DNA from: a virus
Taxonomy: Duplodnaviria > Heunggongvirae > Uroviricota > Caudoviricetes
Length of the DNA: 64,000 nt
Strand: one strand, 5' to 3'
IMG/VR virus record: IMGVR_UViG_2609460125_000009
The notes under the pieces are model-generated. The model was given only the letters and a program-made list of their open reading frames with translations. It did not search any database and was not told the DNA's origin. Positions 11,148-64,000 of this stretch are shown here, piece by piece (positions within the stretch are counted from its first letter, which is position 1; each line of letters opens with the position of its first letter). Both the position numbers and the translations under genes were made by a program.

Positions 11148-12707
11148 CTAATCTCGTTTCAGAACTCCAAAATCGAATGCTCCATCAATAGGCAATACAC
11201 CTTCTGCAAAGCCAGGTGTGGTGTCGATGATGTGTTTTCGCTCATAAGAGTGAGACAACAGGTATTTGTTGCTAATGTCAATGAAATCAGTGATAAAACA
11301 CACGTTTGCCTGATTTTTTTTGGCTCGTAAGCCACGACCGACACGTTGTCTCATTTCAACTTCTGCTTTCCCACCACCAGCAAGAATGACCGCACCAACG
11401 CTTGGCACATCAACACCAACATCCAGAATAGTCGAGCCTATTAAAACATCTATTTCACCAGACGCTAAACTGTTCAGCTTTGCTTGCCTTGTCGTCTGGT
11501 TAGATTCCCCATAGATGAAATCAACTCTAAGACCTGACTCCTTCATCATCTCCATCAGGATTTGCCCGTGGCGTTTAAGACGAACCAGAGTCATGCAGTT
11601 GAGTGAATGTTGCTTATAAAGCAATGCCTCGCGCACTATGGCCTCGTTACGTCCCAAATTATACACGATCCCCAACTGATAAGCCTTTTGGTAGGCGGTG
11701 CTCATACCAACTCTAAAATTGAGATGTTTGTTGGCAAGTTCGGCCTTGATTCTGGCCTCGTCTGGCTTGTAGGCAACTTTATGATAAAGGAAGTACGGCT
11801 TTGCCAGAATGCCTCGATCAATCAGGTACTTTTCTGTGACTTTAATTTCAATTCGCCCGGCCACCGCCATCAGGCGCATGTTGGCTTCCGTCGAATCCTT
11901 CATGAACGGCGTGGCTGTAAGCGCCAGACGATAGTCTGCGTTCACACATAATCTGGCGATGTCATAGAAATTTGAGCCTGAAGACTCATGCGCCTCTTCC
12001 AGAATAAGAAGAGAGACACTTGAAAGGAAGCGTTTCACCAACTCCCGACGTTTGAGGTGGTAGCTTTTCTTATCTGGTGTTGCATCGCGTGGTGGTTCTT
12101 CGAGGAAACTTGCAAGAGTTTGAACTGTAGCGACGTTGATATGTCGTGATACCTGGAACTCACCCGAGCCAATGACTCCAACCTTTTGGTCTTTTAACCA
12201 CGGTTCGCCATTTTTGGCGCGGTAGTCGATGGATCTCTGGAAGTTTTCGGCCATTTGAAACATCAGAACAGAGCGGGTTGTTAAAAATAATGTCATTCGA
12301 CCGATACGTGCAGCTGCTTTGCAGGCAACATTAGATTTCCCGCCACCAGTAGCGATCTGCGCAATCATCATTCCCTCTCGAACCAGTGTTTCCACAGTCT
12401 GATCCTGATACGCATAATCAGGATTGTATGGGAATGGGTTAACCGCCGGATTTGGTTTACCAAGCGCCGGGGCTTTGTCTTTGCGGATATGAACACATTT
12501 GATGCCCGCCTTGTTCAAGTTCGCCGCTACAGGCTTGGCAAAGCCAGCAGGGAACGAGTTTTTACTCCAGTTGAACATCGTGCTTGTGCCCTTCCAGTCG
12601 CCAGTCTCGACTTCGTAGCTCAACATTTGCTGCACCAGTTGCTTTACCTTGTCATCTGCGCCAGAAATAAGCGCATTTACTGCGTTAGATACAATCCGAA
12701 CAGTCAT
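11148..12707 (-). CDS. superfamily-2 DEAD/DEAH-box helicase
   Basis: Motif I ATGGGKS, motif II LILEEAHE, motif III TATP, motif VI QRVGRGLR. Confidence 0.75.
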   Translation of the reverse strand: MTVRIVSNAVNALISGADDKVKQLVQQMLSYEVETGDWKGTSTMFNWSKNSFPAGFAKPVAANLNKAGIKCVHIRKDKAPALGKPNPAVNPFPYNPDYAYQDQTVETLVREGMMIAQIATGGGKSNVACKAAARIGRMTLFLTTRSVLMFQMAENFQRSIDYRAKNGEPWLKDQKVGVIGSGEFQVSRHINVATVQTLASFLEEPPRDATPDKKSYHLKRRELVKRFLSSVSLLILEEAHESSGSNFYDIARLCVNADYRLALTATPFMKDSTEANMRLMAVAGRIEIKVTEKYLIDRGILAKPYFLYHKVAYKPDEARIKAELANKHLNFRVGMSTAYQKAYQLGIVYNLGRNEAIVREALLYKQHSLNCMTLVRLKRHGQILMEMMKESGLRVDFIYGESNQTTRQAKLNSLASGEIDVLIGSTILDVGVDVPSVGAVILAGGGKAEVEMRQRVGRGLRAKKNQANVCFITDFIDISNKYLLSHSYERKHIIDTTPGFAEGVLPIDGAFDFGVLKRD

Positions 12708-12752
12708 AAACCTCTTTCCTTAGTGCCTTTTGTATGTTATTTGGCTATTATA

Positions 12753-12772
12753 ATAAGTAAGTGATTACTTAG
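12753..12772. promoter_or_regulatory. motif family 2 palindrome ATAAGTAAGTGATTACTTAG in a divergent promoter region
   Basis: Inverted repeat between the helicase operon (-) and the ParB-like operon (+). Confidence 0.45.
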
Positions 12773-12789
12773 TGGATTGTAGCAATAAA

Positions 12790-13470
12790 ATGGATGTAAA
12801 AATCACGATTTTGCAGGTTGATGTTGCCAACCTTCGCCCGAATACCTGGAACACCAATTCGGTTGGTGCGCAGAATTTTGAAAAACTGAAAGGTTCTATC
12901 GAAAAATTGGGCTTTTTTAAGCCAATTTTGGCTCGTGAACTTGAAGATGGATTTTTTGAAATCCTCGGCGGCGAACATCGCTGGCGTGCTGCTATTGAGC
13001 AAGGAATTTCAACGGTTCCGGTGCTTTCTGTGGGCAAAATTAGCGATGTCGTAGCTAAACAGATGTCACTGGTGGACAACGAGCGATACGGTGAAGACGA
13101 CCAAATCGCATTGCAACGCTTCATTGAAGAAATTCAGTCAGAACTTGACTATCAACTGTCTGAAATCGCCCCGTATGACGACGAAATCTCGATGGTTTTA
13201 GCAAAAGAGGCGGCAATCGACCTTGAAGCACTGGAGGCGTTGTCTCGTGGTAGTGATGAGCCTGTCGATACCGACAAACGAGAGAAAACCGAACGTGTGG
13301 GTGCGGAACATCAGACCATGCGCTTCAAAGTAACTTTCGATGCGTCAGATCGTGTTGCAGAAACCATAAAAAACATCATCAAAGAGCAGGCTATTAACAC
13401 CGGTAATGAAATGGAGAACGCTGGTGAGGCTCTGGTGTGGCTGGTCGACTACTACAAGGAGCGTATGTAA
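12790..13470 (+). CDS. ParB/Srx-fold nuclease-like domain protein 1
   Basis: ParB N-terminal-like motif (…FEILGGEHRWRAA…); start could be 12772. Confidence 0.6.
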   Translation: MDVKITILQVDVANLRPNTWNTNSVGAQNFEKLKGSIEKLGFFKPILARELEDGFFEILGGEHRWRAAIEQGISTVPVLSVGKISDVVAKQMSLVDNERYGEDDQIALQRFIEEIQSELDYQLSEIAPYDDEISMVLAKEAAIDLEALEALSRGSDEPVDTDKREKTERVGAEHQTMRFKVTFDASDRVAETIKNIIKEQAINTGNEMENAGEALVWLVDYYKERM

Positions 13471-14138
13471 TGACCAAAAAGTTTGAAATCGTATATCGCG
13501 ACCCGGCAGATCTTATTCCCTATGAGATGAATGCCAAAAAGCATGATGAACAGCAGATCCGAGATCTGGCCGCAGCCATTAAAAAGCGCGGATTTGACCA
13601 GCCAATTACGGTCGATAAGAACGACGTAATTATTACTGGCCACGGCCGCCGTGAGGCTGCAATTTTTGCTGGACTTGAGCGCGTACCGGTTATTGTTCGC
13701 GATGATCTCAGTGATGACGAGGTTCGTGCGAAGCGCCTTGAAGATAACCGACTTGCCAGCATTGATTACGATGCAATTAAGCTACAGAAAGAGCTTGAGT
13801 CGCTTGTTCTGGACGATATCGAGGTTTTCGGCTTTGAAGAGCGTGAGTTGAATGTTCTCGTTGGCAGCATGACAGAAGAAATGGACACCGACTCGCTAGT
13901 TATCGATCTTGGCGAAGAAACTAAACGACAGAAGGATGAACACACCGAGATCAGTCGTGAAGTTGCAGCGGAAGAAGTACGTGTTGTCGACGTATTGGGC
14001 TTTAAAACGCTTCCTGCTGGCTCTGCCATTGTTGTTGGTGATTTGCTTGCCCACATGGAAGAAATGACGGGAGAAAGCGGGGTAGACGCATTTGTGGCAT
14101 ATGCGGAGAAGATCTCTTCCGGGGAGATGGCTGCATGA
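13470..14138 (+). CDS. ParB/Srx-fold nuclease-like domain protein 2
   Basis: ParB-like motif (…VIITGHGRREAA…); start overlaps the upstream stop (TAATG). Confidence 0.6.
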   Translation: MTKKFEIVYRDPADLIPYEMNAKKHDEQQIRDLAAAIKKRGFDQPITVDKNDVIITGHGRREAAIFAGLERVPVIVRDDLSDDEVRAKRLEDNRLASIDYDAIKLQKELESLVLDDIEVFGFEERELNVLVGSMTEEMDTDSLVIDLGEETKRQKDEHTEISREVAAEEVRVVDVLGFKTLPAGSAIVVGDLLAHMEEMTGESGVDAFVAYAEKISSGEMAA

Positions 14139-14800
14139 GCAAATACATCATCAACGTATCGTTTCAGACTCGCGTAAATAAAACCACGCGCACGTTGGAA
14201 ATCGCTGAGTCGTTCGGGCTTGGCCTGGACGAAAAAGAGTGGACGCTTTACGACAATCTGGAGCTGGAAGTGAAGCAGGGCGATGTGGTGTACATCACCG
14301 GCCAATCCGGTTCCGGCAAATCCGTTGTGCTGCGCGAGTTGCAACGACAGATGAAGGATGAAGGGCTGTCTGTAGCCTCCATCGATGATTTTACCTTCGA
14401 TAATGAGGTTAACGTCATCGATCAGTTGGGCAAAACGACCAGCGATGCGCTTGGGTTGTTATCTATGGCTGGTCTGAACGATGCATATCTGTTTGTTCGC
14501 AAGCCTTCTGAAATGTCAGACGGTCAGAAATATCGTCTCAAGATTGCCAAATTGATTGAGTCAGGCGCTAAAGTGTGGGCTGCTGACGAGTTCGGTGCTG
14601 TTCTAGACCGTGTAACCGCTCAGGTTGTGGCATCTAACCTCCAGCGTGCCGCTCGAAAGGTTGGTGCGACGGTAATGGTGGCGACGACTCACGAAGACCT
14701 GAAGAACGCGCTGCGCCCGGATATGCAGATCACCAAGCACTACAAAGAACGCGTGAAGGTGGAATATCACAATGGTAGTCATGATGAGGTTCATTTATGA
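14135..14800 (+). CDS. stand-alone ABC-type ATPase domain protein
   Basis: Walker A GQSGSGKS, ABC-signature-like MSDGQKYRL, Walker B AADEFG; start overlaps the upstream stop. Confidence 0.6.
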   Translation: MSKYIINVSFQTRVNKTTRTLEIAESFGLGLDEKEWTLYDNLELEVKQGDVVYITGQSGSGKSVVLRELQRQMKDEGLSVASIDDFTFDNEVNVIDQLGKTTSDALGLLSMAGLNDAYLFVRKPSEMSDGQKYRLKIAKLIESGAKVWAADEFGAVLDRVTAQVVASNLQRAARKVGATVMVATTHEDLKNALRPDMQITKHYKERVKVEYHNGSHDEVHL

Positions 14801-15687
14801 CGGACATCATCATTAAACGCTACCGCCCTGAAGAGTTTCCGCGTCATCTGGACTTTCTGGAGCGAATGACTGTCACAAAGGGAACTGTAGAGGACTGGCA
14901 CGCTCTTAAGTCGCTTCACTACAAAACAGACGGCAAACCTTTCGCGCCAACTTACTATCGCTGCGAACTTGATGACCGTCTGGTGGGCGTCGTGGTTATG
15001 GCTTACCCGAAACTACTGCTGGCACCTCGCCACCGCATGTTTCCTAAGTTGAAACCAACCACTAATACCACCGTGGCTAACCAGTACTGGGGTCGGTACG
15101 TGAATAACAACTTTGCGGTGATCAGTCGCTCAGTTGTGGATACTCAGTATCGTGGCGTAGGCGTCTCTTATCGAATGATTAACCTGGTTAGCAGGATGCA
15201 TGACCGGCCAATCATTGAGATCCAGTCCTCGATGAGCAAATACAATCCCTTCGCCATGAAAGCAGGGTTTAAGTTCATCCGCCCTGAGCGACCGAAGAGC
15301 TATGAAAGTGCACTGCGTGTATTCCAGCGCCATTTCCGTTCCGACCCGGGTGATAACGAGGCGATCGTCAAAGAGTTGTTCGCAATGAGCGAGTCTCGTC
15401 GTCGCCGTGCACTGCGTGATCTGGTGGCGGACTACCACAAGAACAGTTCCCTGGCAAAAGCTGGGCGGAATCGTGGCACGACGATTCAGGACATTGCCGA
15501 CAGTCTGGTGGACGAGGCCAGCATTGTGAAGCTGCTCAAGGACATTCACAACCTGAGCTTTACGTCTCCGTTGTATGGTGTGTACCGAAACCCTGACTTT
15601 GGCCGTCGACTGCCTGACACGCTGCCACTGCTGGCATTCGACAAACAACCTTTGGATAAACCGTTAGAAATTGCTTTACCGGCATAA
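14797..15687 (+). CDS. hypothetical protein with GNAT-like acyl-CoA binding motif
   Basis: Q-x-x-G-x-G motif (VVDTQYRGVGVSYRMINLV) after a hydrophobic strand; translationally coupled to the ATPase gene. Confidence 0.45.
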   Translation: MTDIIIKRYRPEEFPRHLDFLERMTVTKGTVEDWHALKSLHYKTDGKPFAPTYYRCELDDRLVGVVVMAYPKLLLAPRHRMFPKLKPTTNTTVANQYWGRYVNNNFAVISRSVVDTQYRGVGVSYRMINLVSRMHDRPIIEIQSSMSKYNPFAMKAGFKFIRPERPKSYESALRVFQRHFRSDPGDNEAIVKELFAMSESRRRRALRDLVADYHKNSSLAKAGRNRGTTIQDIADSLVDEASIVKLLKDIHNLSFTSPLYGVYRNPDFGRRLPDTLPLLAFDKQPLDKPLEIALPA

Positions 15688-15696
15688 GGATTTGCC

Positions 15697-15963
15697 ATGA
15701 CGTTAACCGATAAACAAAAGGACATCATCAAAACGCTCAATCTCGGTTATGAGCGAGGTCATCTACTTGACCTGGACGAATTGCTTGAAGTTTTGCCGTA
15801 CAAGACAACTAAGCAAAGTATCCAGTTCTCAATTCGCGCTCTGATAAAAAAGGGGCTGGTGGAGAAAGGGCATACGCGCCAACGCAGTGACAATCGCTAT
15901 CACCGCCGAACTCTTGGGTTAACCACTTTAGGTCGAGCCAAAGCGAAGTTACTGGTGATGTAA
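15697..15963 (+). CDS. small DNA-binding protein (winged-helix-like)
   Basis: 88-aa basic ORF; HTH call is by pattern only. Confidence 0.4.
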   Translation: MTLTDKQKDIIKTLNLGYERGHLLDLDELLEVLPYKTTKQSIQFSIRALIKKGLVEKGHTRQRSDNRYHRRTLGLTTLGRAKAKLLVM

Positions 15964-15987
15964 TCGGTCTGGGAGCTTATTTAAAGA

Positions 15988-16042
15988 CCTGCTTCTGTAT
16001 ATATAAATAATAAGTAACTTATTAAATATATACGGAAGCAGG
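15988..16042. repeat. 55-bp hairpin element, copy 1 (CCTGCTTCTGTATATATAAATAATAAGTAACTTATTAAATATATACGGAAGCAGG)
   Basis: Imperfect palindrome with a motif-family-2-like centre; identical copy at 48434-48488. Confidence 0.7.
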
Positions 16043-16104
16043 CTTCGTAAGACATGCCAGACCTAATTAAACACCCCAGAAAACAAGTTGGTTAGCAGAT
16101 GCAG

Positions 16105-16119
16105 TAAACAAGTTGTTTT
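16105..16119. promoter_or_regulatory. motif family 1 site TAAACAAGTTGTTTT (degenerate second copy at 16078-16093)
   Basis: Upstream of the terminase small subunit gene; followed by a GAGCGC…GCGCTC hairpin. Confidence 0.5.
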
Positions 16120-16158
16120 AGAGCGCATGGACGCGCTCTGTGTGTTTTAGAGGGATCT

Positions 16159-16791
16159 ATGACGGTCGAAAAAGACGAGGTAAAAACTCGCCTGACACCA
16201 GCGGAGTGGGCCGAAGCTGAAGCCAAATGGACGTCAGGCGAATATACACTCTCAAAGCTGGAGGAAGAGTACGGCATTCGTCGTGAAACACTCTCCAGAC
16301 ATTTCAAAAAGCGAGGATTAGAGAAAGGCGCGGACTCTGTTGGGAAGATGGTTCGTGAGTCTCTTAAATCTGACGCAGAGCTTCGCGCTAAAGCCCGTGC
16401 GGAAAAGATAGAAGAACGTCGTACACGTTATGACGGCTGGGCGTATGCGTTGGGGCAGATGGTGATGGTCGAAGTCACTACGGCCAAACGTGAGGGTAAG
16501 CCTTTAGGGGCGATTGAGGATTCTCTCAAGAGCTTACAGAGAGCCAGTAATACCCTTGCAAAATGCTTTGAAGTTTCGTCCAAAGCATTGGGCATGGATC
16601 ATGCGGAAAATGACGAGGAAGAAATTCCGAACCTGGTATTTGGTGAGCTTACGCCTTCCCAGGTGGCGAAATTACGTCAGGAAGACGACGAGCCTGAAAT
16701 CATCGATGACGAATTGCTTGAGACGTTGGAAGAAGAAGCTCTAAGCGAATTTGATGCGACAGATGATGGAAGTGAAGGGGAGGACGAATAA
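16159..16791 (+). CDS. terminase small subunit (putative)
   Basis: Position immediately upstream of terminase large subunit; acidic C-terminus. Confidence 0.55.
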   Translation: MTVEKDEVKTRLTPAEWAEAEAKWTSGEYTLSKLEEEYGIRRETLSRHFKKRGLEKGADSVGKMVRESLKSDAELRAKARAEKIEERRTRYDGWAYALGQMVMVEVTTAKREGKPLGAIEDSLKSLQRASNTLAKCFEVSSKALGMDHAENDEEEIPNLVFGELTPSQVAKLRQEDDEPEIIDDELLETLEEEALSEFDATDDGSEGEDE

Positions 16792-18047
16792 TGGCAATCC
16801 CGTCCTCGCTCAGTCTTGTGCAACTGCATTCTGGACAGATGAAAGTCTTCCAGTCTCCGCATCGATTTAAAGTTGTTTGTGCTGGTCGACGCTGGGGAAA
16901 ATCCCGGTTGTCGATCTCCACTATTATTCGTGCGGCGGCAAAGGAAAAAAAGCAAAGGGTCTGGTATGTCGCTCCTACTTACCAGATGGCTCGCCAGATT
17001 TTGTGGGACGATCTACAGGAAGTTCTGCCTCGTAAGTGGGTTAGGAAAAAGAACGACACCACGATGACAATCGTGTTGAAGAACGGTTCGGAGATCGCCC
17101 TCAAAGGTGCTGATAAGCCTGACACTCTGCGCGGCGTAGCGTTGCATTTTGTAGTGCTTGATGAATTTCAGGATATGAAGGCTGACACTTGGTACAAGGT
17201 GTTACGACCTACTCTTTCATCGACACGCGGCGGTGCACTGATCATTGGTACGCCAAAAGGCTTCTCGGAATTTCACAAACTGTGGACTATAGGCCAGAAC
17301 GTAGAGCTGCAAAGAAAGGGACAGTGGAAGAGCTGGCAGTTTGTAACTGCCGATTCTCCGTTTGTACCTACGGCGGAAATTGAAGCTGCTAAGAACGATA
17401 TGGACCCCAAATCGTTCGCTCAGGAGTACCTGGCCAGCTTTGAGAACATGTCCGGGCGCGTTTACTACCCGTTCGATCGTAACGTGCATGTAAAACCGCT
17501 TCAGTTCAACCCTCGGTTACCTATATGGGTAGGGCAGGACTTCAACATTGACCCGATGTCTTCCGTAATTTTGCAACCTCAGCCAAATGGTGAGCTATGG
17601 GCAATTGATGAATTGGTGCTCTTTTCCTCTAACACGGCAGAGGTTTGTGATGAGCTTGAGAGACGCTTCTGGCGCTGGAAATCACAGATAACGATATTTC
17701 CAGATCCGGCAGGTGCTTATCGCCAACATGCTCGCGGGGAGTCTGACGTCGACATATTCAAAGAGAAGGGATTCTTACGTGTCGATTATTCGAAAAAGCA
17801 CCCGCCAATTGCGGATCGTGTTAATGCTGTTAACCGAATGCTGATGACCGCATCTGGAGATATCCGGCTGTATATCGATCCGAAGTGCAAGCATTTGATT
17901 GATTCACTGGAAAAAGTCATCTACAAGCCTGGAACACGAGATATGGATAAGACAGGTGGCATTGAGCATAGTGCAGACGCATTGGGCTATCCAGTACATC
18001 GTAGGTATCCAGTCAAAAACCGTGTTATTCTTGGTGGTTCTCGATAG
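16791..18047 (+). CDS. terminase large subunit
   Basis: Walker A-like VCAGRRWGKS, Walker B VVLDEF; gene order. Confidence 0.8.
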   Translation: MAIPSSLSLVQLHSGQMKVFQSPHRFKVVCAGRRWGKSRLSISTIIRAAAKEKKQRVWYVAPTYQMARQILWDDLQEVLPRKWVRKKNDTTMTIVLKNGSEIALKGADKPDTLRGVALHFVVLDEFQDMKADTWYKVLRPTLSSTRGGALIIGTPKGFSEFHKLWTIGQNVELQRKGQWKSWQFVTADSPFVPTAEIEAAKNDMDPKSFAQEYLASFENMSGRVYYPFDRNVHVKPLQFNPRLPIWVGQDFNIDPMSSVILQPQPNGELWAIDELVLFSSNTAEVCDELERRFWRWKSQITIFPDPAGAYRQHARGESDVDIFKEKGFLRVDYSKKHPPIADRVNAVNRMLMTASGDIRLYIDPKCKHLIDSLEKVIYKPGTRDMDKTGGIEHSADALGYPVHRRYPVKNRVILGGSR

Positions 18048-18073
18048 GTAAGTAATTATCTAAGGTTATTCAA

Positions 18074-19648
18074 ATGGAATTGAACGACAAACAAATTAAG
18101 GATCTGGTGGCGCGACGCCACCCGGAATACGAAAAGAAAAAAGAACATTGGGACTTCCTCGCCAGCACTTACGCTGGCGGGCGTGGTTGGTTTACAGACA
18201 ATATCTTTCGTTACTTTAAAGAGGGAGATCAGGAGTTTAAGGAGCGAGTTGAACGTGCTTATCGCTTCAACCACACTCGTGAGGTGGTAAACCTCATCAA
18301 CAAATATCTCTTTAAAGAAGACATTCATAGAAATATCGAAGAGGCACCAGAGCAGATCCGCAATTTCTGGAAACGTGCGACTCGCCAGAATGCCTCTATT
18401 GACTCATTTATGGCCGCTATTGATTTGCAGTCGTCTATTTACGGTCGCATATGGGTTGTTGTCGATAGCACGATGAGTGGTGATGTTGAGTCAGTAGCTG
18501 ACGAGAAAAAGAAAGATGCTCGCGCCTACGCCTACTGGATTTCACCTCAGCAAATGCTGGATGTGGCATGGGACGACGACGGGAATATGTTGTGGGCGTT
18601 AATTGTGGAAGTCGCTCGTGATGACGCAGATCCTTTTACTTCTACAGGTCAGGAATACCAACGTTATCGTCTGTGGACACAAAACGAGTGGTATCTGTTC
18701 CGTGAGGAAGTGAAGAAGGGCGCTGGTGGAGCAGGTCGCCGTCAGGCAAAAGTTATTTTAGAGGATAGCGGTGAGCATAATCTCGGCGTAGTTCCTGTGT
18801 TTCCTGTTGATTGTATTGGAGAAAGTGAATCACCGTATTTCAGCCCATCGTTGATCGATGATATCGCTTATCTTGATCGTGCGGTTGCAAACTATCTGTC
18901 AAACCTTGATGCCATTATTCAGGATCAGACATTTAGCCAGTTGGCTATACCGGTACAGTCGCTTTTACCTGGTGATGAAAACCACACTAAAGTGCTTGAA
19001 ATGGGCACAAAGCGAGTCTTCACCTACGATTCTGAAGGCGGAAACCAGCCGTTTTATCTGTCACCAGACCCGAAACAAGCTCAGATGATCATCACTACGA
19101 TTAAGACGGTGATTAACGAAATCTACCATTCAGTTGGTGTAGCTGGTGAGCGAACGAAGCAGGACAACGCACAGGGAATCGATAATTCATCTGGTGCCGC
19201 AAAAATGTATGACTTCCAGCGTGTAAATAGCTTGCTTGTCACAAAAGCAGAGCGTCTGGAAAGGGCTGAACGCCAAATCATGCTACTGGTTGCGAAATGG
19301 ATGGGGGTAGATCTGGACGAAGACCACTCTTTAATTGCGTATCCAGAAAGTTTCGATATTCGTGGCCTTACTGATGAATTTTCTGTTGCCGAGAAACTGT
19401 CATTACTTCAGGCACCGGACTCTGTACGTCGTCACCAGATGGAAATGCTTATTGAGAAGATTTTCCCGAACATTACTGAGGCGATGAAAAAGGAATTTGA
19501 TAAAGATCTCTTGAATTTTCCTCCAAAAAATGATCTAAATACCCTTGAAAATAAGTCAGTACTTACTTATGATCGTGGTGCAGCCCAAGAAAGCGGGCAA
19601 GATCAACCCCGAGGGAATGGGGACTCATCTACTCAAGAGAACGAGTGA
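18074..19648 (+). CDS. portal protein (putative)
   Basis: 524 aa directly after terminase large subunit. Confidence 0.65.
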   Translation: MELNDKQIKDLVARRHPEYEKKKEHWDFLASTYAGGRGWFTDNIFRYFKEGDQEFKERVERAYRFNHTREVVNLINKYLFKEDIHRNIEEAPEQIRNFWKRATRQNASIDSFMAAIDLQSSIYGRIWVVVDSTMSGDVESVADEKKKDARAYAYWISPQQMLDVAWDDDGNMLWALIVEVARDDADPFTSTGQEYQRYRLWTQNEWYLFREEVKKGAGGAGRRQAKVILEDSGEHNLGVVPVFPVDCIGESESPYFSPSLIDDIAYLDRAVANYLSNLDAIIQDQTFSQLAIPVQSLLPGDENHTKVLEMGTKRVFTYDSEGGNQPFYLSPDPKQAQMIITTIKTVINEIYHSVGVAGERTKQDNAQGIDNSSGAAKMYDFQRVNSLLVTKAERLERAERQIMLLVAKWMGVDLDEDHSLIAYPESFDIRGLTDEFSVAEKLSLLQAPDSVRRHQMEMLIEKIFPNITEAMKKEFDKDLLNFPPKNDLNTLENKSVLTYDRGAAQESGQDQPRGNGDSSTQENE

Positions 19649-56294: not shown

Positions 56295-56369
56295 GATGGT
56301 GTAGCTCAGCGGTAGAGCAGTTGGCTGTTAACCAACTGGTCGGTGGTTCGAATCCACCCACCATCGCCA
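56295..56369 (+). tRNA. tRNA-Asn (anticodon GTT)
   Basis: Hand-folded cloverleaf: acceptor GATGGTG/CACCATC, anticodon loop CTGTTAA, T-loop TTCGAAT, 3' CCA encoded. Confidence 0.8.
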
Positions 56370-56374
56370 ATTTA

Positions 56375-56461
56375 GGGGAGTTAGTCCGTAGAGGTAGCGG
56401 GGTAGACTGTAAATCTACTGTCATTGCGACTCGGGTGGTTCGACTCCATCACTCCCCACCA
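56375..56461 (+). tRNA. tRNA-Tyr (anticodon GTA), long variable arm
   Basis: Acceptor GGGGAGT/ACTCCCC, anticodon stem-loop GTAGA-CTGTAAA-TCTAC, long variable arm; D-arm pairing is atypical. Confidence 0.6.
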
Positions 56462-56465
56462 AATT

Positions 56466-56541
56466 GCCGGTTTAGCTCAGTTGGTAGAGCGCCTGCCTTG
56501 TAAGCAGGATGTCAGCGGTTCGATCCCGTTAACCGGCACCA
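56466..56541 (+). tRNA. tRNA-Thr (anticodon TGT)
   Basis: Acceptor GCCGGTT/AACCGGC, D-arm GCTC-AGTTGGTA-GAGC, anticodon loop CTTGTAA, T-loop TTCGATC. Confidence 0.8.
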
Positions 56542-56904
56542 ACACAACAGGTAAGAGCATTGGGCGAATCGGCGATACTGACCCACAAGCCCGTAAATCG
56601 ATAGAGTCAGACCAGTGCTCTTACCGTTGTGAGGAAGTGCAGCTCTTTGAAGCAACCAGAAGATAAGCATCTGGCTTCACAACACAACGATAAGATCATT
56701 ACGGTTAATCGTCGTTCATGTGCACAATGACTGGTCGAAAGGTAGTGATCTTACCGTTGTGGTGGATTCGCAGACTGATGCGATAGCTTTCTTGGATGTT
56801 AGGGAAATGCGGCCGCAAATCTTCCCTTTCGCGAGCGGTGATCGTCCGTAGTCCTAATTGGCTGCACCGTATGCCGGAGATTCAGTACCGGCCACCACAA
56901 CGGC

Positions 56905-56991
56905 CGGAGAGTAGGGAGCATGGTGCTCAAGCGGTCTTGAAAACCGTCCCATTGCGCAAGCGATGATGGTTCGATTCCATTACTCTCCGCC
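56905..56991 (+). tRNA. tRNA-Ser (anticodon TGA), long variable arm
   Basis: Acceptor GGAGAGT/ACTCTCC, anticodon loop CTTGAAA, T-loop TTCGATT; D-arm atypical. Confidence 0.55.
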
Positions 56992-57147
56992 AGACACAGC
57001 GTTGAGCGGTTTGGCCTTTTAATCACCCAGATTAAGACTCCGCTAACATAAACCAGACCGCTCAACGCTGTGATAGACAATTACGGCAGACGTTCTTAAC
57101 CATAGCTTGCTAACATCCTAGCAACACTTTTTTTCAGCGCAAAATTC

Positions 57148-58016: not shown

Positions 58017-59120
58017 ATGAAAAATAGCTTTGACAGAGCACGCGCTGCGGAGAACACCTCAAAAGAGGCGATTGAGTATCTCGAAAGAGCATCTCAAATG
58101 CAGGCCGTTATGATCTCCCAGGTCAGCAATGACATGAGATTCTCGGACGCATTCATGTTATTCACTCGCTTATCTCTGCTGATAACAAGACGTCGGCCAG
58201 AGATCGCTGTTCATTGTATTTTGATACATGTTTTGCCGCACATTGCCGATGTAAAAGTAAGTGATATTAATAGGTTCATGGTGAACCAACTGGTCAACCC
58301 ACTAATACTGGATGGCAAAATTGTTATGGGTCGCCGCGTTTTCTCTCTGATGAAGCAGTTCCTCAGCTGGTGCGCCTTCCAGGGGATGATCGACGTGTCA
58401 CCGTTAAACGATATGTCACTTAACAAAGTTGCCGGTGGCGCAAAGCCCACACCTCGCGAGCGGAAGCTGACCGACGCAGAGGTATGGGTGTTCTGGAATA
58501 TATGGGACTACTTCAATGTGTGTGCTGGTACAAAATGGGCGGCCAGGCTATGTCTTGTATCCGCAAGACGACCTGACGAAGTACTGCGGGCTAAAAAAAG
58601 TGAGTTCAATCTTAAGCGTGGGGTTTGGAATCAAGGCAAGAGGAACAAATCTGCCCGTGAGCATTCTCTGCCTTTAAGCTCATTAATGCGCACTTGTATT
58701 GAAGAGTTGTTCGAATATGGTAAAGACAGCCAGTGGCTCGTGCCTTCGAATAAAAAAATCGGGAAAGACCTTCCTATGTCTAAAGTGGCAATAGCCCAGG
58801 CATTACGTCGTATTCTGGAACGACCAGAACTGATGGAGCTTGAGCCATTTACACCCCGAGATTTGCGCCGTACTGCGCGTAGTTACTTCCCAGCATTAGG
58901 CATAAGCCAGGAGGTATCACGTAAAATCATGAACCACAGTCTTGAGGGGATAGATCGGGTCTACGACCGGCACGATTATATGGACGAGATGCGAGACGCC
59001 TTAGAAAGTTTCTCGACGTACATCGCATCAATCGTAGAGCAACCGGATTTAGACGAAATTGACCACAAATTTAAGGGAGATCGTCTATCAACAGAGCTTA
59101 TTCGTGTAAATTTTTCATAG
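58017..59120 (+). CDS. tyrosine recombinase / integrase
   Basis: C-terminal catalytic pattern RDLRRTARS…H…VYDRH; N-terminal start uncertain. Confidence 0.6.
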   Translation: MKNSFDRARAAENTSKEAIEYLERASQMQAVMISQVSNDMRFSDAFMLFTRLSLLITRRRPEIAVHCILIHVLPHIADVKVSDINRFMVNQLVNPLILDGKIVMGRRVFSLMKQFLSWCAFQGMIDVSPLNDMSLNKVAGGAKPTPRERKLTDAEVWVFWNIWDYFNVCAGTKWAARLCLVSARRPDEVLRAKKSEFNLKRGVWNQGKRNKSAREHSLPLSSLMRTCIEELFEYGKDSQWLVPSNKKIGKDLPMSKVAIAQALRRILERPELMELEPFTPRDLRRTARSYFPALGISQEVSRKIMNHSLEGIDRVYDRHDYMDEMRDALESFSTYIASIVEQPDLDEIDHKFKGDRLSTELIRVNFS

Positions 59121-59501
59121 AGACTTTATGGCCTCAACAACCTTTTGTGATGCGCCTTTCTCTTTACCGAATCGCTCGTTATATGCAGCAAGAACCTGTT
59201 TTTCGTCCTCGTTAAGAGGAGCAGTGCCTTCTTTGTATAAAAATGCTGCGAGTTCGGGTTGGCGTTCTTCCAGCACCATCATCATAAGACGACTTGGCTC
59301 AATACCCAGTGCCAGCGCCAGCGGACGAACCTTATCGATAGGCAAAGGAATTTTGCCGCTTTTAATTAAAGAAAGGTTGTTGGCGTTTTTATACCCAATT
59401 GTTTTGGCTATCTGGGCCTGGCTCATAGGTGAGGATTCAATCAACCCTGCGATAAAAGCAGCGTAGCGACTTTCTATAAATTCAATCTTGTTATCAGACA
59501 T
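59115..59501 (-). CDS. XRE-family HTH transcriptional repressor
   Basis: HTH (…SQAQIAKTIGYKNANNLSLIKSG…); divergent from a small plus-strand ORF. Confidence 0.65.
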   Translation of the reverse strand: MSDNKIEFIESRYAAFIAGLIESSPMSQAQIAKTIGYKNANNLSLIKSGKIPLPIDKVRPLALALGIEPSRLMMMVLEERQPELAAFLYKEGTAPLNEDEKQVLAAYNERFGKEKGASQKVVEAIKSL

Positions 59502-59752: not shown

Positions 59753-59965
59753 ATGAACACCACTATTTCCAGCCTAATCGCTCTTGAGATCGGACACGTA
59801 CAGAAATTAGCTGATGAGTGTGTAGCTGACATCCTCACCGATCTACCGAATGAGCAGATTCAGGTTGGTGTGAATGACACAACTGGATTTATATTCGAAC
59901 TTAACAACAAACGCTTCACGCTTCTCAATACCGGCTCCGGGTCTTTAGCCGTCAGAATCTGTTAA
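59753..59965 (+). CDS. hypothetical small protein
   Basis: 70-aa ORF divergent from the XRE gene. Confidence 0.35.
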   Translation: MNTTISSLIALEIGHVQKLADECVADILTDLPNEQIQVGVNDTTGFIFELNNKRFTLLNTGSGSLAVRIC

Positions 59966-60032
59966 CCCCTCTTCTCCCTGCGCGAATGGCTTAGTTCCCT
60001 GTTCGCGCAGTGCTACATTAAACACACTAGTA

Positions 60033-60063: not shown

Positions 60064-62172
60064 ATGTCTAAAAAACGTTCCATCAAAGAGGTTCAGGACT
60101 TCCGTGACAGTGTAAAACGAGTAGTCGCTCTCCTTTCAGGTAAAAACATCCCTGTTGCAGAACGAGGGGACGACGCTTATGTACGCTATAACGATGATGG
60201 AGAGCCAATTCTCGTAAACATCCCATCAATCCCGGATAACGCAACACCGGCATTGATGAATGCTGTGCGCGGATTTCTCGATCATGAGGTTGCTCACATT
60301 TTGTTTACCGATATTCGTGTGTCCAACAAAATGAGAGAAAAAGGACGCGTTCCTTCCTGGTCGCTATGGAATGCCTTAGAAGACGTGTTCATCGAGCGAA
60401 AAATGGGTCAGGTCTTTAACGGAACAAGACGTAATCTGATGGCAACTCAGCGCCTTATAATCGAAAAAGTCTTTAAACCAAAGGCTTCAGAGGCTATTGC
60501 TTATTGTGGCAAAGATCAGCGCGCGCTTTTTCTAAACTTCTTTCTCTGTCCGGTTGTAAGAGCCTGGGATGGCCAAGCACCGTTCGTAGATTTCATGGAT
60601 GAATATTGGCCTGTCATTGAGAAACCAATTTCATTATTAAAAGAACATGGTATCGATGTGGCCGTGCGTAACATGTCTTGCACCGAGGATTGTGTAAAGG
60701 TGGCTGCGACCATAGCTAAGATCCTCAAAGACACTGAAAGTGAAAGCAAAGGTAAGGAGTCAGCTCCGGGAAAAACTTCCGATCCTTCAGACGCTGACCA
60801 GACGGATGCCTCTGGAGAAAACAATGAAGACAACGAAGATCATGAGACACCCTCAGCGTTAGATAATCACAAATCTATCAAATCAGAATCACACAGTAAG
60901 CACAAACATGATAATAACGACGGTGATGATTCAGATAATTCTGAATCATCAGAAACAATATTCGATGATACAGAAAATGATAAAGAGGTATCAGATTCTG
61001 ATGCTTCTGATAACGCGGTGTCAGAATCATTTACCGCTGACCACGAAAAAAGAAAAACGACAGAAGACGGCTCTTCAGATATCCCAACTCCGTCAAAAAT
61101 GAGTCTGGAAGAGGCTTTAGAGGAGCTGGATAGCATAGAAGATGAAGTCGGAGGCATGACAGAAGATGCTCTATCCGAAACGATTAAAAGCGAGTTAACA
61201 GAAACCTCGAAAAGCGAATACAGGCCATACAATCGCTCATACGACTTCATCGGCTCGATTGATCAGGCAGAAGCCCATATCAAACGGCTTATTAAAACAT
61301 TCTCCGATATTGATTTAGGAGGATATCCAATCAGCCGCTATCGCATCGTTCCTGAAGGCAACCAGCTCTTCGACAAATATATTGAAAAGCATCTTTCGTC
61401 AGGTGTTTCGTCGACGCTGGCAAAAGACCTGGAGCGAGCAATAGCAAGCAGAAACAGAGTTCAGTTTATACCGGGCCAGCGTCGGGGGCGCATTCATGGT
61501 TCTAGTATCTACAGATTAGCAATGAATGATGATCGCGTGTTTCGTAAAAAAGAAGAATCTAAAGCCGTTAACGCCTGTGTTCAGCAAGTGATTGATTTAT
61601 CAGGTTCAATGAGTGGTATAACGATACAATTGGCTCTTGCAAGTGCATATACCATCGCCGATGCCCTTGATCGAATAAATGTTCCCAACATTATCACCGG
61701 CTTCACTACATTTGGTAGTCATATGGCGGCAGGAGAACTTAAGGCTGTCAAGTATGAGTTCTCTCGCTTTGAATCTTTAATGCTACCTATCATCAAAAAT
61801 TGGAATGAAAAGGTAAATTCTCGCGAAGTTCGCTCACGTATGGGGTGCGTAGGCTACACATTCCCACTTCTTAATAACGTGGATGGTGAAAGCATAGCCA
61901 GCCTTGCATCGTTATTTTCCGGTCGCATGGAGGACAGGAAGATCATGCTTGTTCTGAGTGATGGCGCGCCGTGGGCTGTTGGGAGAGGTTTTGACGCTCA
62001 TTTGCGTTCGGTTGCGAAGCAAATTGAAACGCAGACTGACATTGATTTGATGGCAATTGGCATCATGACTGACGCACCGGAGAGATTATACTCAAATCAT
62101 GCCCTGGTAACGAGCGTTGATAGTCTTGGTTCATCTGTAGTTACTGAACTATCTCGTATCATTTTAAAGTGA
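60064..62172 (+). CDS. CobT-like protein with C-terminal vWA domain
   Basis: Long acidic linker; MIDAS-like DLSGSMSG in the C-terminal domain. Confidence 0.6.
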   Translation: MSKKRSIKEVQDFRDSVKRVVALLSGKNIPVAERGDDAYVRYNDDGEPILVNIPSIPDNATPALMNAVRGFLDHEVAHILFTDIRVSNKMREKGRVPSWSLWNALEDVFIERKMGQVFNGTRRNLMATQRLIIEKVFKPKASEAIAYCGKDQRALFLNFFLCPVVRAWDGQAPFVDFMDEYWPVIEKPISLLKEHGIDVAVRNMSCTEDCVKVAATIAKILKDTESESKGKESAPGKTSDPSDADQTDASGENNEDNEDHETPSALDNHKSIKSESHSKHKHDNNDGDDSDNSESSETIFDDTENDKEVSDSDASDNAVSESFTADHEKRKTTEDGSSDIPTPSKMSLEEALEELDSIEDEVGGMTEDALSETIKSELTETSKSEYRPYNRSYDFIGSIDQAEAHIKRLIKTFSDIDLGGYPISRYRIVPEGNQLFDKYIEKHLSSGVSSTLAKDLERAIASRNRVQFIPGQRRGRIHGSSIYRLAMNDDRVFRKKEESKAVNACVQQVIDLSGSMSGITIQLALASAYTIADALDRINVPNIITGFTTFGSHMAAGELKAVKYEFSRFESLMLPIIKNWNEKVNSREVRSRMGCVGYTFPLLNNVDGESIASLASLFSGRMEDRKIMLVLSDGAPWAVGRGFDAHLRSVAKQIETQTDIDLMAIGIMTDAPERLYSNHALVTSVDSLGSSVVTELSRIILK

Positions 62173-62187
62173 ACAAAACAGCCTTAA

Positions 62188-62210
62188 CGATAAGTAACCA
62201 CTTACGATAG
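62188..62210. promoter_or_regulatory. motif family 2 site GATAAGTAACCACTTACGATAG
   Basis: Inverted repeat between the CobT-like and CobS-like genes. Confidence 0.4.
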
Positions 62211-62267
62211 ATAATGATATATTTATATAAGAAGTTGAACGCTCATTAGAAAACAAAGGAAAAACGC

Positions 62268-63503
62268 ATGACTACTACTGCACTGCAAAATGAAAACAAT
62301 CCTTCTGATTACCTTGTTTGCAAGTGGTGCGGAAAATCATTTCACTATTTTAAGTCCCATGTTGCCAATGGTAATTGCGAGGGCATTCCTGAGTCAGTAA
62401 AAGATGCCGATCCTGACACCGTACTGAAAATGTACACAACACAGTTTCCAGATGAGCCAACGCTATCGAAAAAGGCACTTGATGCAATTCAAGCTAAACG
62501 TGCCGAGCAAAAAAGCGAAATGGCCAAATCATCTGGCGTGACCAGTAGCCCAGGCTACACAGGCACAGTTGAGTACAAGACAGATCTGGTCGCAGCTCAC
62601 GAACTGCTAAATGTAACGGTGAAAGAACTCGGAACAAAACGTGGGACGCCGCTCATGGTTAGCGTCAACGTCAATACGCCGTTTCCAGAGTTCGTTCCAG
62701 AAGTGAAGAAGGGATACGTATATGGCGACTTCGAACTGATCAAAGACATTTTCATGATGCTTGAACTTGGCATACCTGGCTATTTGTGGGGTCATGCAGG
62801 AACAGGCAAATCGTCATTGCCTACACAACTATGTGCTTTGCTCAATCGTCCGTTGATCCGTGCCCAACATACAGCATCAATGGAAGAGGCACATGTTACG
62901 GGGCAAATTCTGGCGCGTGATGGCTCTACGTATTTCGAGCCTGGCTTGCTTGCGCTCGCAATGAAGCATGGCTGGGTTTACCTCGCGGATGAATACGACT
63001 TTGCGTTTCCACAAATTCTTGGCGTGTATCAGCCAGTGCTGGAAGGTGAAGCGTTAGTCATCAAAGAGGCGACTCCAGAATGGCGTCGCATTACTCCGCA
63101 TGAACGGTTTGCTTTCATTGGCACTGGCAACACGAACGGATCTGGTGATGAAACCGGCTTGTACCAGGGTACAAACATCCAGAACGCCGCGAACTTTTCG
63201 CGTTTTGGCATCGTTTCGAATGTGAAATACATGAGCAAAGAGGCAGAGATCAACATGTTGATAAATGCCGGTATCGTGGATGAATACGCAGAAAAGATGG
63301 TTAAGTTTGCCGGTATCGTTCGCGATGGATACGAAGAACACCTTATCAGTCAGCCAATTGGCCCTCGTGAACTTTTGTTGTCGGCCAAGATTGGAATGAT
63401 GCGAGGCGACTTTGTGACAGGTATTGAGCGTTCTTTCATTAACAAACTCCCTTCAGCTTCTGCACAAGCGGCTCGTGAAGTTGTTCAAAAAATATTTGGT
63501 TGA
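62268..63503 (+). CDS. CobS-like MoxR-type AAA+ ATPase
   Basis: Walker A GHAGTGKSS; Walker B LADEYD. Confidence 0.6.
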   Translation: MTTTALQNENNPSDYLVCKWCGKSFHYFKSHVANGNCEGIPESVKDADPDTVLKMYTTQFPDEPTLSKKALDAIQAKRAEQKSEMAKSSGVTSSPGYTGTVEYKTDLVAAHELLNVTVKELGTKRGTPLMVSVNVNTPFPEFVPEVKKGYVYGDFELIKDIFMMLELGIPGYLWGHAGTGKSSLPTQLCALLNRPLIRAQHTASMEEAHVTGQILARDGSTYFEPGLLALAMKHGWVYLADEYDFAFPQILGVYQPVLEGEALVIKEATPEWRRITPHERFAFIGTGNTNGSGDETGLYQGTNIQNAANFSRFGIVSNVKYMSKEAEINMLINAGIVDEYAEKMVKFAGIVRDGYEEHLISQPIGPRELLLSAKIGMMRGDFVTGIERSFINKLPSASAQAAREVVQKIFG

Positions 63504-63683
63504 TCGTGCGTAAAGGATGTTTCGGCTCTCTTATCGCTGCTTCTGAAACTGGTAAGGCTTGTCTGGTGTGTCCAGACAAGCCCGATTGTCACCAATCAGC
63601 AAAAGAAGTTGCGATTTCGATGCATGGGAAGTTCGTAGGCTTCCCAAATGACAAAATCAAAAAAACCAGAAAGGTAAAAACAC

Positions 63684-64000
63684 ATGAAGGCACTGATGGT
63701 TCGAACTGACTTCTCACTTGGGGAGTCGGCTTTAAAAGCAGAAAACGCGGTGAAGATTGCCAGAGAAGCTGGCTACACCGCTGTAATTTCAGCAGATAGC
63801 ATGAATATTGCGAGCGTTATTCCACTACAACGTGCCGCTGGTGACGACATGGCGGTTATTTGTGGTGTGAAACTAAACATCGTTGATGATCCCACATACG
63901 AGCACCGGGCTAAACTTGCTAAAGAGTCTAAGGGATGTATGGAATCATTGGAGCGAGGACGTAACTACTCGTTTACCGCTCTAATTAAAAATGAGAAAGG
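63684..64000 (+). CDS. PHP-domain DNA polymerase alpha-like protein, N-terminal part (3' end outside window)
   Basis: ATG with AAGGTAAAAA RBS; frame open to the window end; N-terminus resembles the DnaE PHP start but lacks the first His pair. Confidence 0.4.
   Translation, partial: MKALMVRTDFSLGESALKAENAVKIAREAGYTAVISADSMNIASVIPLQRAAGDDMAVICGVKLNIVDDPTYEHRAKLAKESKGCMESLERGRNYSFTALIKNEK

Follow-up and report, generated by a model that had tools for sequence, protein, structure and literature searches.

In the solved CobSTN complex, CobS forms a ring, the shaft of CobT (the segment before its vWA domain) is inserted into this ring, and the N-terminal domain of CobT (CobT_N) rests on the small domain of CobS, with CobN held between CobT_N and the vWA domain, near the MIDAS (metal ion-dependent adhesion site) (bioRxiv 10.64898/2026.07.21.739949). 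Clusters of cobS and cobT are also widely distributed among bacterial and archaeal tailed viruses; Liu et al. (2021) proposed that they hijack a host CobN and deemed the annotation of cyanophage cobT as a “peptidase” a mistake (PMC8651126). A MoxR-vWA pair in which the vWA protein bears an N-terminal metallopeptidase was described in T4-like jumbo phages by Iyer et al. (2021), who proposed a role in virion assembly with proteolytic processing (PMC7824862). In cyanomyoviruses, cobS is a single-copy core gene (PMC9983427, PMC3037559), and for ∼20 years marine viromics has listed it among the auxiliary metabolic genes for vitamin B12. Here, we analyze a pair of this kind encoded at positions 60064–63503 of IMG/VR virus record IMGVR_UViG_2609460125_000009, of which a stretch of 64,000 nucleotides (the window) was studied. 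The pair consists of a CobT-like gene and a CobS-like gene on the same strand, 95 nt apart, and the N-terminal domain of the CobT-like protein carries a complete zincin signature that is absent from canonical CobT.

Zincin Motif and Predicted Fold of the N-terminal Domain

The CobT-like protein (60064–62172, + strand) is an adaptor of 702 residues that comprises an M48-like zincin N-domain, an acidic linker, a shaft segment, and a vWA/MIDAS domain. Its N-terminal domain (residues 1–235; 60064–60768, +), for which a gluzincin/M48-like fold is predicted, contains the sequence HEVAH at residues 74–78 (60283–60297, +), corresponding to the zincin motif HExxH, and further downstream the sequence E106-D107-x3-E111 (60379–60396, +), which offers a candidate third metal ligand and an acidic helix. 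When 111 full-length homologs of ∼30% identity were aligned, the columns found to be invariant were G70, D73, H74, E75, H78, E106, D107, E111, G120, and R166. An exhaustive search with residues 1–235 yielded 1,148 representative clusters, and HExxH was kept in 148/150 and 107/109 diverse viral-type homologs (∼98%). The motif is also present in the “peptidase” of cyanophage Syn19 and in the corresponding proteins of Vibrio phage ICP2 and Rhizobium phage RHEph10. By contrast, none of 120 canonical CobT homologs contains HExxH, and all of them have [SA][MIL]AL[RK] at that position.

Comparison with the deposited canonical CobT (9uka_G/21vu_H) places RGFLD-HEVAH of the window opposite RGLGD-SMALR, and at the position of E106-D107-x3-E111 the canonical protein reads E-Q-x3-E. 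The register of HEVAH was the same by profile-profile HHalign (E 4e-4, 157 columns) and when the family profile was compared with the PDB CobT chain. A family profile was required for this purpose, as a phmmer search of the PDB with the N-domain sequence on its own returned chance matches alone (e.g. HLA-DR).

The motif is not kept in every relative. The CobT-like protein of Pseudomonas phage nickie (6974–9058) reads DSEISK, having lost HExxH and kept the equivalents of E106 and E111 as well as the MIDAS, and HExxH is likewise lost in two metagenomic homologs.

A confident AlphaFold2 model of the N-domain was obtained, with a predicted local distance difference test score (pLDDT) of 89.4 and a predicted template modeling score (pTM) of 0.83. 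The modeled layout, in which a helix is followed by a three-stranded sheet, the HExxH helix, and the E106/E111 helix, is in the order found in zincins; the strands span residues 31–53, HEVAH lies on helix 62–81, and E106 and E111 both lie on helix 99–117. A Foldseek search of the PDB with this model gave nothing below an E value of 1. The crystal structure of canonical CobT_N has itself been likened to the peptidase M48C domain (bioRxiv 10.64898/2026.07.21.739949). Judged by the residues at the aligned positions, the canonical CobT N-domain is a dead zincin, and the N-domain of the viral family has all of the predicted catalytic residues. Motif and fold together point to a peptidase-like domain with predicted protease activity.

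Domain Organization of the CobT-like and CobS-like Proteins

The 702-residue open reading frame (ORF) matches Pfam CobT over residues 9–294 (E 4.7e-26) and CobT_C, the vWA domain, over residues 492–701 (E 5.6e-82), as well as phrog_1576 (E 2.6e-299), and its family profile matches CobT in the PDB (9uka_G, E 5.8e-63). The score of 69.6 bits against the NCBIfam CobT equivalog TIGR01651 does not reach the cut-off of 759.05.

Residues 226–400 (60739–61263, +) form an acidic, Ser/Thr-rich linker (29% Asp + Glu, 25% Ser + Thr, net charge −35) that is probably disordered, as suggested by its composition and by a family alignment without consensus in this region; the disordered linker of canonical CobT has ∼90 residues (Zhou et al. 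2026 preprint, CobSTN structures). The pre-vWA segment (residues 401–490; 61264–61533, +) is homologous to the canonical CobT shaft, aligning to residues 313–414 of 9uka_G, and contains the near-invariant family residues E457, R458, G471, G475, and L482. By analogy with the solved complex, this segment would be the shaft that inserts into the CobS ring. The vWA domain (residues 492–701; 61537–62166, +) carries the MIDAS sequence DLSGS at residues 511–515 (nt 61594–61608), and in the alignment of 111 homologs D511, S513, and S515 are invariant and T548/T549 and D633 near-invariant.

The CobS-like protein (62268–63503, +) is a MoxR-class AAA+ ATPase of 411 residues that matches Pfam AAA_5 over residues 173–293 (E 2.1e-15) and phrog_249 (E 2e-106). 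Walker A (GHAGTGKS) is found at residue 175 (nt 62790–62813) and Walker B (VYLADE) at residue 237 (nt 62976–62993). The nearest solved relative is CobS (9ujv_A, E 1.8e-25, residues 141–411), with midasin, CbbQ, and NorQ ranking behind, and residues G175, G178, G180, K181, D241, E242, N288, R312, R352, and R367 are invariant among phage homologs of 21–39% identity. As with its partner, the NCBIfam equivalog score (TIGR01650, 84.8 bits) does not reach the cut-off, in this case 558.55. The N-terminal extension of ∼140 residues, which has no counterpart in canonical CobS, contains the putative metal-binding knuckle C18-x2-C21-x4-H26-x4-H31 (62319–62360, +). Pseudomonas phage nickie has this CxxC-x4-H-x4-H pattern too; RHEph10 has a degenerate form of it, and ICP2, Syn19, and P100 lack it.

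A preliminary description of this DNA, made from the letters alone, had reported a CobT-like protein of 702 residues with an acidic linker and a C-terminal MIDAS vWA domain, followed by a MoxR-type AAA+ ATPase. Both proteins were recovered as ORFs at exactly the same coordinates, and the Pfam CobT_C match, the DLSGS sequence, the AAA_5 match, and the solved CobS relative bear out their domain assignments.

The Element and Its Host

The 3.4-kb segment containing the pair is 99.9% identical to CP057127.1 (E. coli plasmid pRHB36-C16_2) and 99.4% identical to phage Cyrano (pLF82). Identity of at least 95% was found in 194 plasmid records and 4 phage records, Cyrano included, and nearly all of the 194 plasmids are non-mobilizable E. 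coli/Shigella replicons of ∼95–115 kb. The same protein is found in Salmonella phage SSU5, with 73% amino acid identity. The window is a phage-plasmid of E. coli of the SSU5/pHCM2 type, in agreement with the membership given in the preliminary description, and its statement that other phages carry the pair also proved correct, as seen in ICP2, Syn19, RHEph10, and nickie.

In the Cyrano record (OV696614), the region 15001–18440 that equals window positions 60064–63503 is labeled “dimethylbenzimidazole phosphoribosyltransferase” and “cobalamin synthetase.” These labels are a name collision with the unrelated CobT and CobS of Salmonella nomenclature, and the cyanophage paper PMC9983427 errs likewise.

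That no CobN partner is encoded in the window, as first described, holds for the whole annotated element. With CP057127.1 (109,591 bp) as the complete-element reference, CobN is absent from all 119 annotated features. The check for a CobN gene just outside the window was negative in the same annotation, in which the genes 3′ of the pair are a small ORF and then dnaE, the next large gene. The absence of CobN from the E. coli host is taken from the literature: because B12 synthesis in E. coli requires heterologous cobN, cobS, and cobT and ∼30 further genes (PMC6249242), the host supplies neither the CobN partner nor the substrate. The ribonucleotide reductase (RNR) of the element, NrdAB, belongs to the B12-independent class. 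A tetrapyrrole chelatase role for the pair in this element is unlikely.

Operon Position and Synteny

The pair lies ∼17 kb past the last structural gene, a tail fiber gene that ends at 42661, with genes for a helicase, a primase, and a ligase, a tRNA cluster, an integrase, and a divergent Xre-type repressor in between. This Xre/helix-turn-helix-type repressor (59115–59501, −; Pfam HTH_19), which is divergent from the operon of the pair, corresponds to the putative repressor CYRAN_45 of Cyrano, and at the equivalent place in RHEph10 and in the Ralstonia and betaproteobacterial prophages there are homologous repressors (E 1e-12 to 1e-13, from a search of a small local database). In the LF82 lysogen, expression exceeds background for CYRAN_45 and the toxin-antitoxin genes, and CYRAN_47/48, which are the pair in Cyrano, are not among the genes reported as expressed (PMC9928086). 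The pair constitutes the first large genes of a lytic operon beside the immunity repressor, co-oriented with DnaE. Operon position, synteny, and the lysogen transcriptome all point to an early lytic timing.

The full gene order is shared with an integrated Ralstonia pickettii prophage and a betaproteobacterial contig, both of which contain integrase, repressor (on the − strand), small ORF, CobT-like, CobS-like, (sigma-like), Cys-rich protein, DnaE, gp32, and exonuclease genes, with CobT-like proteins ∼30% identical to that of the window. A partial order (DNA ligase, small ORF, CobT-like, CobS-like, Cys-rich protein, DnaE) is found in Rhizobium phage RHEph10 and Pseudomonas phage nickie. ICP2 and cyanophage Syn19 have the pair among replication genes, ICP2 on its replication arm and on the strand opposite all structural genes, and Syn19 between gp46/47 and gp45/44/62. 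The Cys-rich neighbor is absent in ICP2 and the cyanophages, and ICP2 lacks both RNR and DnaE. BFVD fold matches extend the N-domain-plus-vWA architecture to haloarchaeal, Gordonia, and Brevibacterium viruses.

The tblastn search gave 799 phage matches, a number that includes AAA_5 matches in Herelleviridae (Staphylococcus, Listeria), so that the meaningful count is lower. The Herelleviridae matches were excluded as an apparently different two-gene system in which the partner is DUF7192 (PF23822) and not a vWA protein: in Staphylococcus phage 812 (5703–7679) and Listeria phage P100plus (5758–7606), AAA_5 is followed by DUF7192, despite labels of “CobS/porphyrin biosynthesis.” In Xanthomonas phage JGB6 (7001–8798), the ORFs are heavily fragmented into short helicase, DnaE, and AAA ATPase pieces, and the CobT-like tblastn match falls under PHP/DnaE labels, which suggests frameshift-rich sequence or misannotation.

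The rightward operon begins with a small ORF of 70 residues (59753–59965, +; phrog_2627, E 8.8e-41). An ORF of 60–76 residues occupies the same position in RHEph10, nickie, and the Ralstonia and betaproteobacterial prophages; because no sequence similarity among these small upstream ORFs was detected and their conservation is positional only, the ORF is not claimed as part of the module. Between this ORF and the CobT-like start codon, positions 59980–60012 (+) contain a 9-bp perfect inverted repeat, CTGCGCGAA ... TTCGCGCAG, with a 15-nt loop and no T-run after it, which may serve as an operator or fold as an RNA structure. A search for terminator-like sites on the + strand from 59966 to dnaE found none. 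A promoter scan returned sites no more numerous than in shuffled controls, and no promoter is therefore claimed.

Immediately downstream of the pair is an ORF of 69 residues (63500–63709, +; phrog_6337, E 2e-45) that is missing from the annotation of both CP057127.1 and Cyrano. It overlaps both neighbors, the CobS-like stop codon with its TTG start and the dnaE start with its end, and encodes a Cys-rich protein with the pattern GCFG...C-x2-C-x5-C. This N-terminal motif is common to the Cys-rich proteins of 175–237 residues in RHEph10, nickie, and the Ralstonia and betaproteobacterial prophages, which in those four are always encoded between the CobS-like gene and DnaE, and the 69-residue ORF looks like a truncated version of them. 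The 5′ end of dnaE (DNA polymerase III α subunit; ATG at 63684, annotated as dnaE in CP057127.1 and Cyrano) occupies 63684–64000 (+) and extends past the window. In Ralstonia (13033–16401), the betaproteobacterial contig (12568–15990), and RHEph10 (12219–15632), DnaE is fused to a uracil-DNA-glycosylase-like domain.

Elsewhere in the window, four tRNA genes (Asn-GTT, Tyr-GTA, Thr-TGT, and Ser-TGA; 56295–56992, +) lie upstream of the integrase, and in the corresponding region of the Cyrano record the Asn, Thr, and Ser tRNAs alone are listed. A methionyl-tRNA ligase gene fragment with Anticodon_3 and tRNA_bind domains is present at the window start (82–972, +); in the CP057127.1 annotation this gene is metG, adjoining apbC, which is housekeeping-type cargo unusual for such an element.

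Proposed Mechanism and Alternatives

On balance, we favor a model in which, early in lytic growth, a protein client is remodeled and probably cleaved by the pair, operating as a CobST-style AAA+ motor with its adaptor. The CobS-like protein would form a MoxR-class ring, by homology to the solved CobST complex, and the 702-residue adaptor would put its pre-vWA shaft into this ring, with its N-domain resting on the small domain of the ATPase. A protein client would then be held by the MIDAS, in the place that CobN takes in the chelatase, and would be clamped between the MIDAS and the predicted live zincin site if the CobST-like assembly holds. ATP-driven remodeling of the client would be coupled to metal-dependent cleavage. 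The client would be acted on early, during takeover or replication, and not during virion assembly.

Remodeling with cleavage appears the most likely activity because the N-domain, unlike that of canonical CobT, keeps the complete gluzincin signature. Early action is suggested because the pair comes first in the lytic operon by the repressor, is co-oriented with DnaE, and is not seen expressed in lysogeny. We infer the mode of assembly from homology, given that the shaft-gripping residues of the ring lack conservation and that the ATPase has no counterpart of the last CobS helix. The losses of HExxH in nickie and in the two metagenomic sequences show that catalysis is not obligatory in every lineage.

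MoxR-vWA relatives typically mature metalloenzymes, and the pair could instead be a non-proteolytic metallochaperone or maturation factor (cf. NorQD, CoxDEF, and MoxR) in which HExxH...E is a metal-binding or hand-over site. NorQ/NorD and CbbQ are among the PDB matches, the His/Glu site is conserved and adjoined by a conserved protein with a four-Cys motif, and the element encodes metalloenzymes in DnaE, with its PHP domain, and NrdAB. No specific phage metalloenzyme co-occurs with the pair throughout, however, because ICP2 has the pair without RNR or DnaE and the Cys-rich neighbor is missing from cyanophages and ICP2. Moreover, in all characterized relatives, an M48-like fold with HExxH and a downstream Glu marks catalysis and not transfer. 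We regard a metallochaperone role as unlikely, if the best placed of the alternatives. A dedicated maturation role for RNR or DnaE was set aside, as ICP2 has the pair and neither enzyme.

A function as a virion-assembly chaperone or co-chaperone, with peptidolytic processing of structural proteins, would be analogous to the tail chaperones of Acidianus two-tailed virus. This role was proposed for the same architecture in PMC7824862, the zincin motif and MIDAS are both intact, and the status of the pair as a single-copy core gene of cyanomyoviruses resembles that of a basic phage function (PMC9983427, PMC3037559). Genomic position, which does not prove timing, argues the other way. Between the pair and the last structural gene, ∼17 kb away, lie replication genes, tRNAs, the integrase, and the repressor; ICP2 carries the pair on the replication arm and opposite in strand to the structural genes; in Syn19 it lies between gp46/47 and gp45/44/62; and it is just upstream of DnaE in SSU5-like elements, RHEph10, nickie, and the Ralstonia prophages. 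An assembly role seems quite improbable to us.

Least credible, and in our judgment very nearly to be discarded, is the usual annotation as an auxiliary metabolic cobaltochelatase, in which viral CobS and CobT plug into host CobN and raise cobalamin synthesis (Liu et al. 2021; PMC8651126): in its favor are the AAA+ and vWA domains, significantly homologous to those of CobS and CobT, and a partly kept CobS-CobT_N interface, but the 109.6-kb element has no CobN, E. coli lacks both the substrate and the pathway for de novo synthesis (PMC6249242), the equivalog scores are 6–11-fold under the cut-offs, the CobN-docking surface of CobT_N bears an intact protease motif found in 0/120 real CobT proteins, and the element has a B12-independent RNR and does not have the pair among its genes expressed in lysogeny (PMC9928086). 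Phages that infect V. cholerae, Klebsiella, and Salmonella carry the pair as well. These hosts are not known to have an aerobic CobN route, which is a further point against a chelatase.

A known defense system was dropped as an identity, the PADLOC match being limited to a chance-level DrmE (E 0.0037). An ImmA-like anti-repressor protease, suggested by the adjoining repressor, was also rejected; the pair is core in virulent phages that have no repressor (cyanomyoviruses, ICP2) and is not co-transcribed with the repressor.

Returning to the remodeling and cleavage model, a broader version can be put forward tentatively, as a possibility that we hold with less than even assurance. Viral CobST proteins may have no part in a chelatase and may constitute an ancient metalloprotease class of their own, M48-like, AAA+-driven, and MIDAS-targeted, by which a conserved client is cut as phage DNA replication begins, and cellular CobT may be a derived, catalytically dead offshoot in which CobN has taken the place of the client. 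If the protease reading is true, many auxiliary metabolic gene inventories mislabel cobS, and if the pair indeed represents a distinct metalloprotease class, the B12 reading of a core cyanophage gene is overturned. The SSU5-type pair resides in a tractable host without CobN or a corrin substrate, such that any phenotype would be independent of chelatase activity. The HExxH contrast (∼98% of viral-type proteins versus 0% of canonical CobT) provides a simple annotation rule that separates chelatase subunits from the viral family and also supplies precise point mutants for a client search.

Comparison with Known Systems

In comparison with CobNST (PDB 9ujv, 9uka, and 21vu; Zhou et al. 2026 preprint), the pair shares the combination of a MoxR-class AAA+ motor with an adaptor built of an M48-like domain, an acidic linker, a shaft, and a vWA-MIDAS domain. 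Residues of the CobS-CobT_N interface are shared as well: R76, D80, and N130 of CobT correspond to R69, D73, and N124 of the window protein, and E308, Q311, and R312 of CobS correspond to E404, Q407, and K408 of the window ATPase. The two systems differ in that the window ATPase is without the last CobS helix (the C-terminal α-10 patch), does not conserve the ring residues that grip the canonical shaft, and has the additional ∼140-residue N terminus with the CxxC-H-H knuckle. They differ also in the N-domain, which reads HExxH...E in the window and SMALR in canonical CobT, and in the lack of CobN from the element.

Relative to the M48/M56 gluzincin metalloproteases (Ste24/ZMPSTE24, HtpX-like, and BlaR1), the likeness would lie in motif and predicted fold, with sequence identity to the window protein of just 7–12%. 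The window protein differs in being soluble, without transmembrane segments, and in its tether to a vWA domain and AAA+ partner.

The viral cobST cluster of PMC8651126 belongs to the same family, with the same adjacent gene pair and with HExxH in Syn19, ICP2, and RHEph10, and its fold is common to haloarchaeal virus proteins. In E. coli, however, the CobN-hijack reading of that study is very unlikely to apply, and, contrary to the paper, motif and fold here favor a peptidase-like domain. The pair described by Iyer et al. (PMC7824862) has an identical architecture, a zincin-vWA protein adjoining a MoxR ATPase in a tailed phage, although the context in the window, an immunity-proximal early operon with DnaE, is a poor fit to an assembly role; no link to the CobT/CobS families or to phage-plasmids was drawn in that work. 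Because both the cobST cluster of viruses and the fusion of metallopeptidase and vWA have been published already, the pair is a known kind of module. To these descriptions the present analysis adds the active-site contrast between canonical and viral proteins in numbers, the link to the structure of CobT_N, and the immunity-proximal, DnaE-linked synteny.

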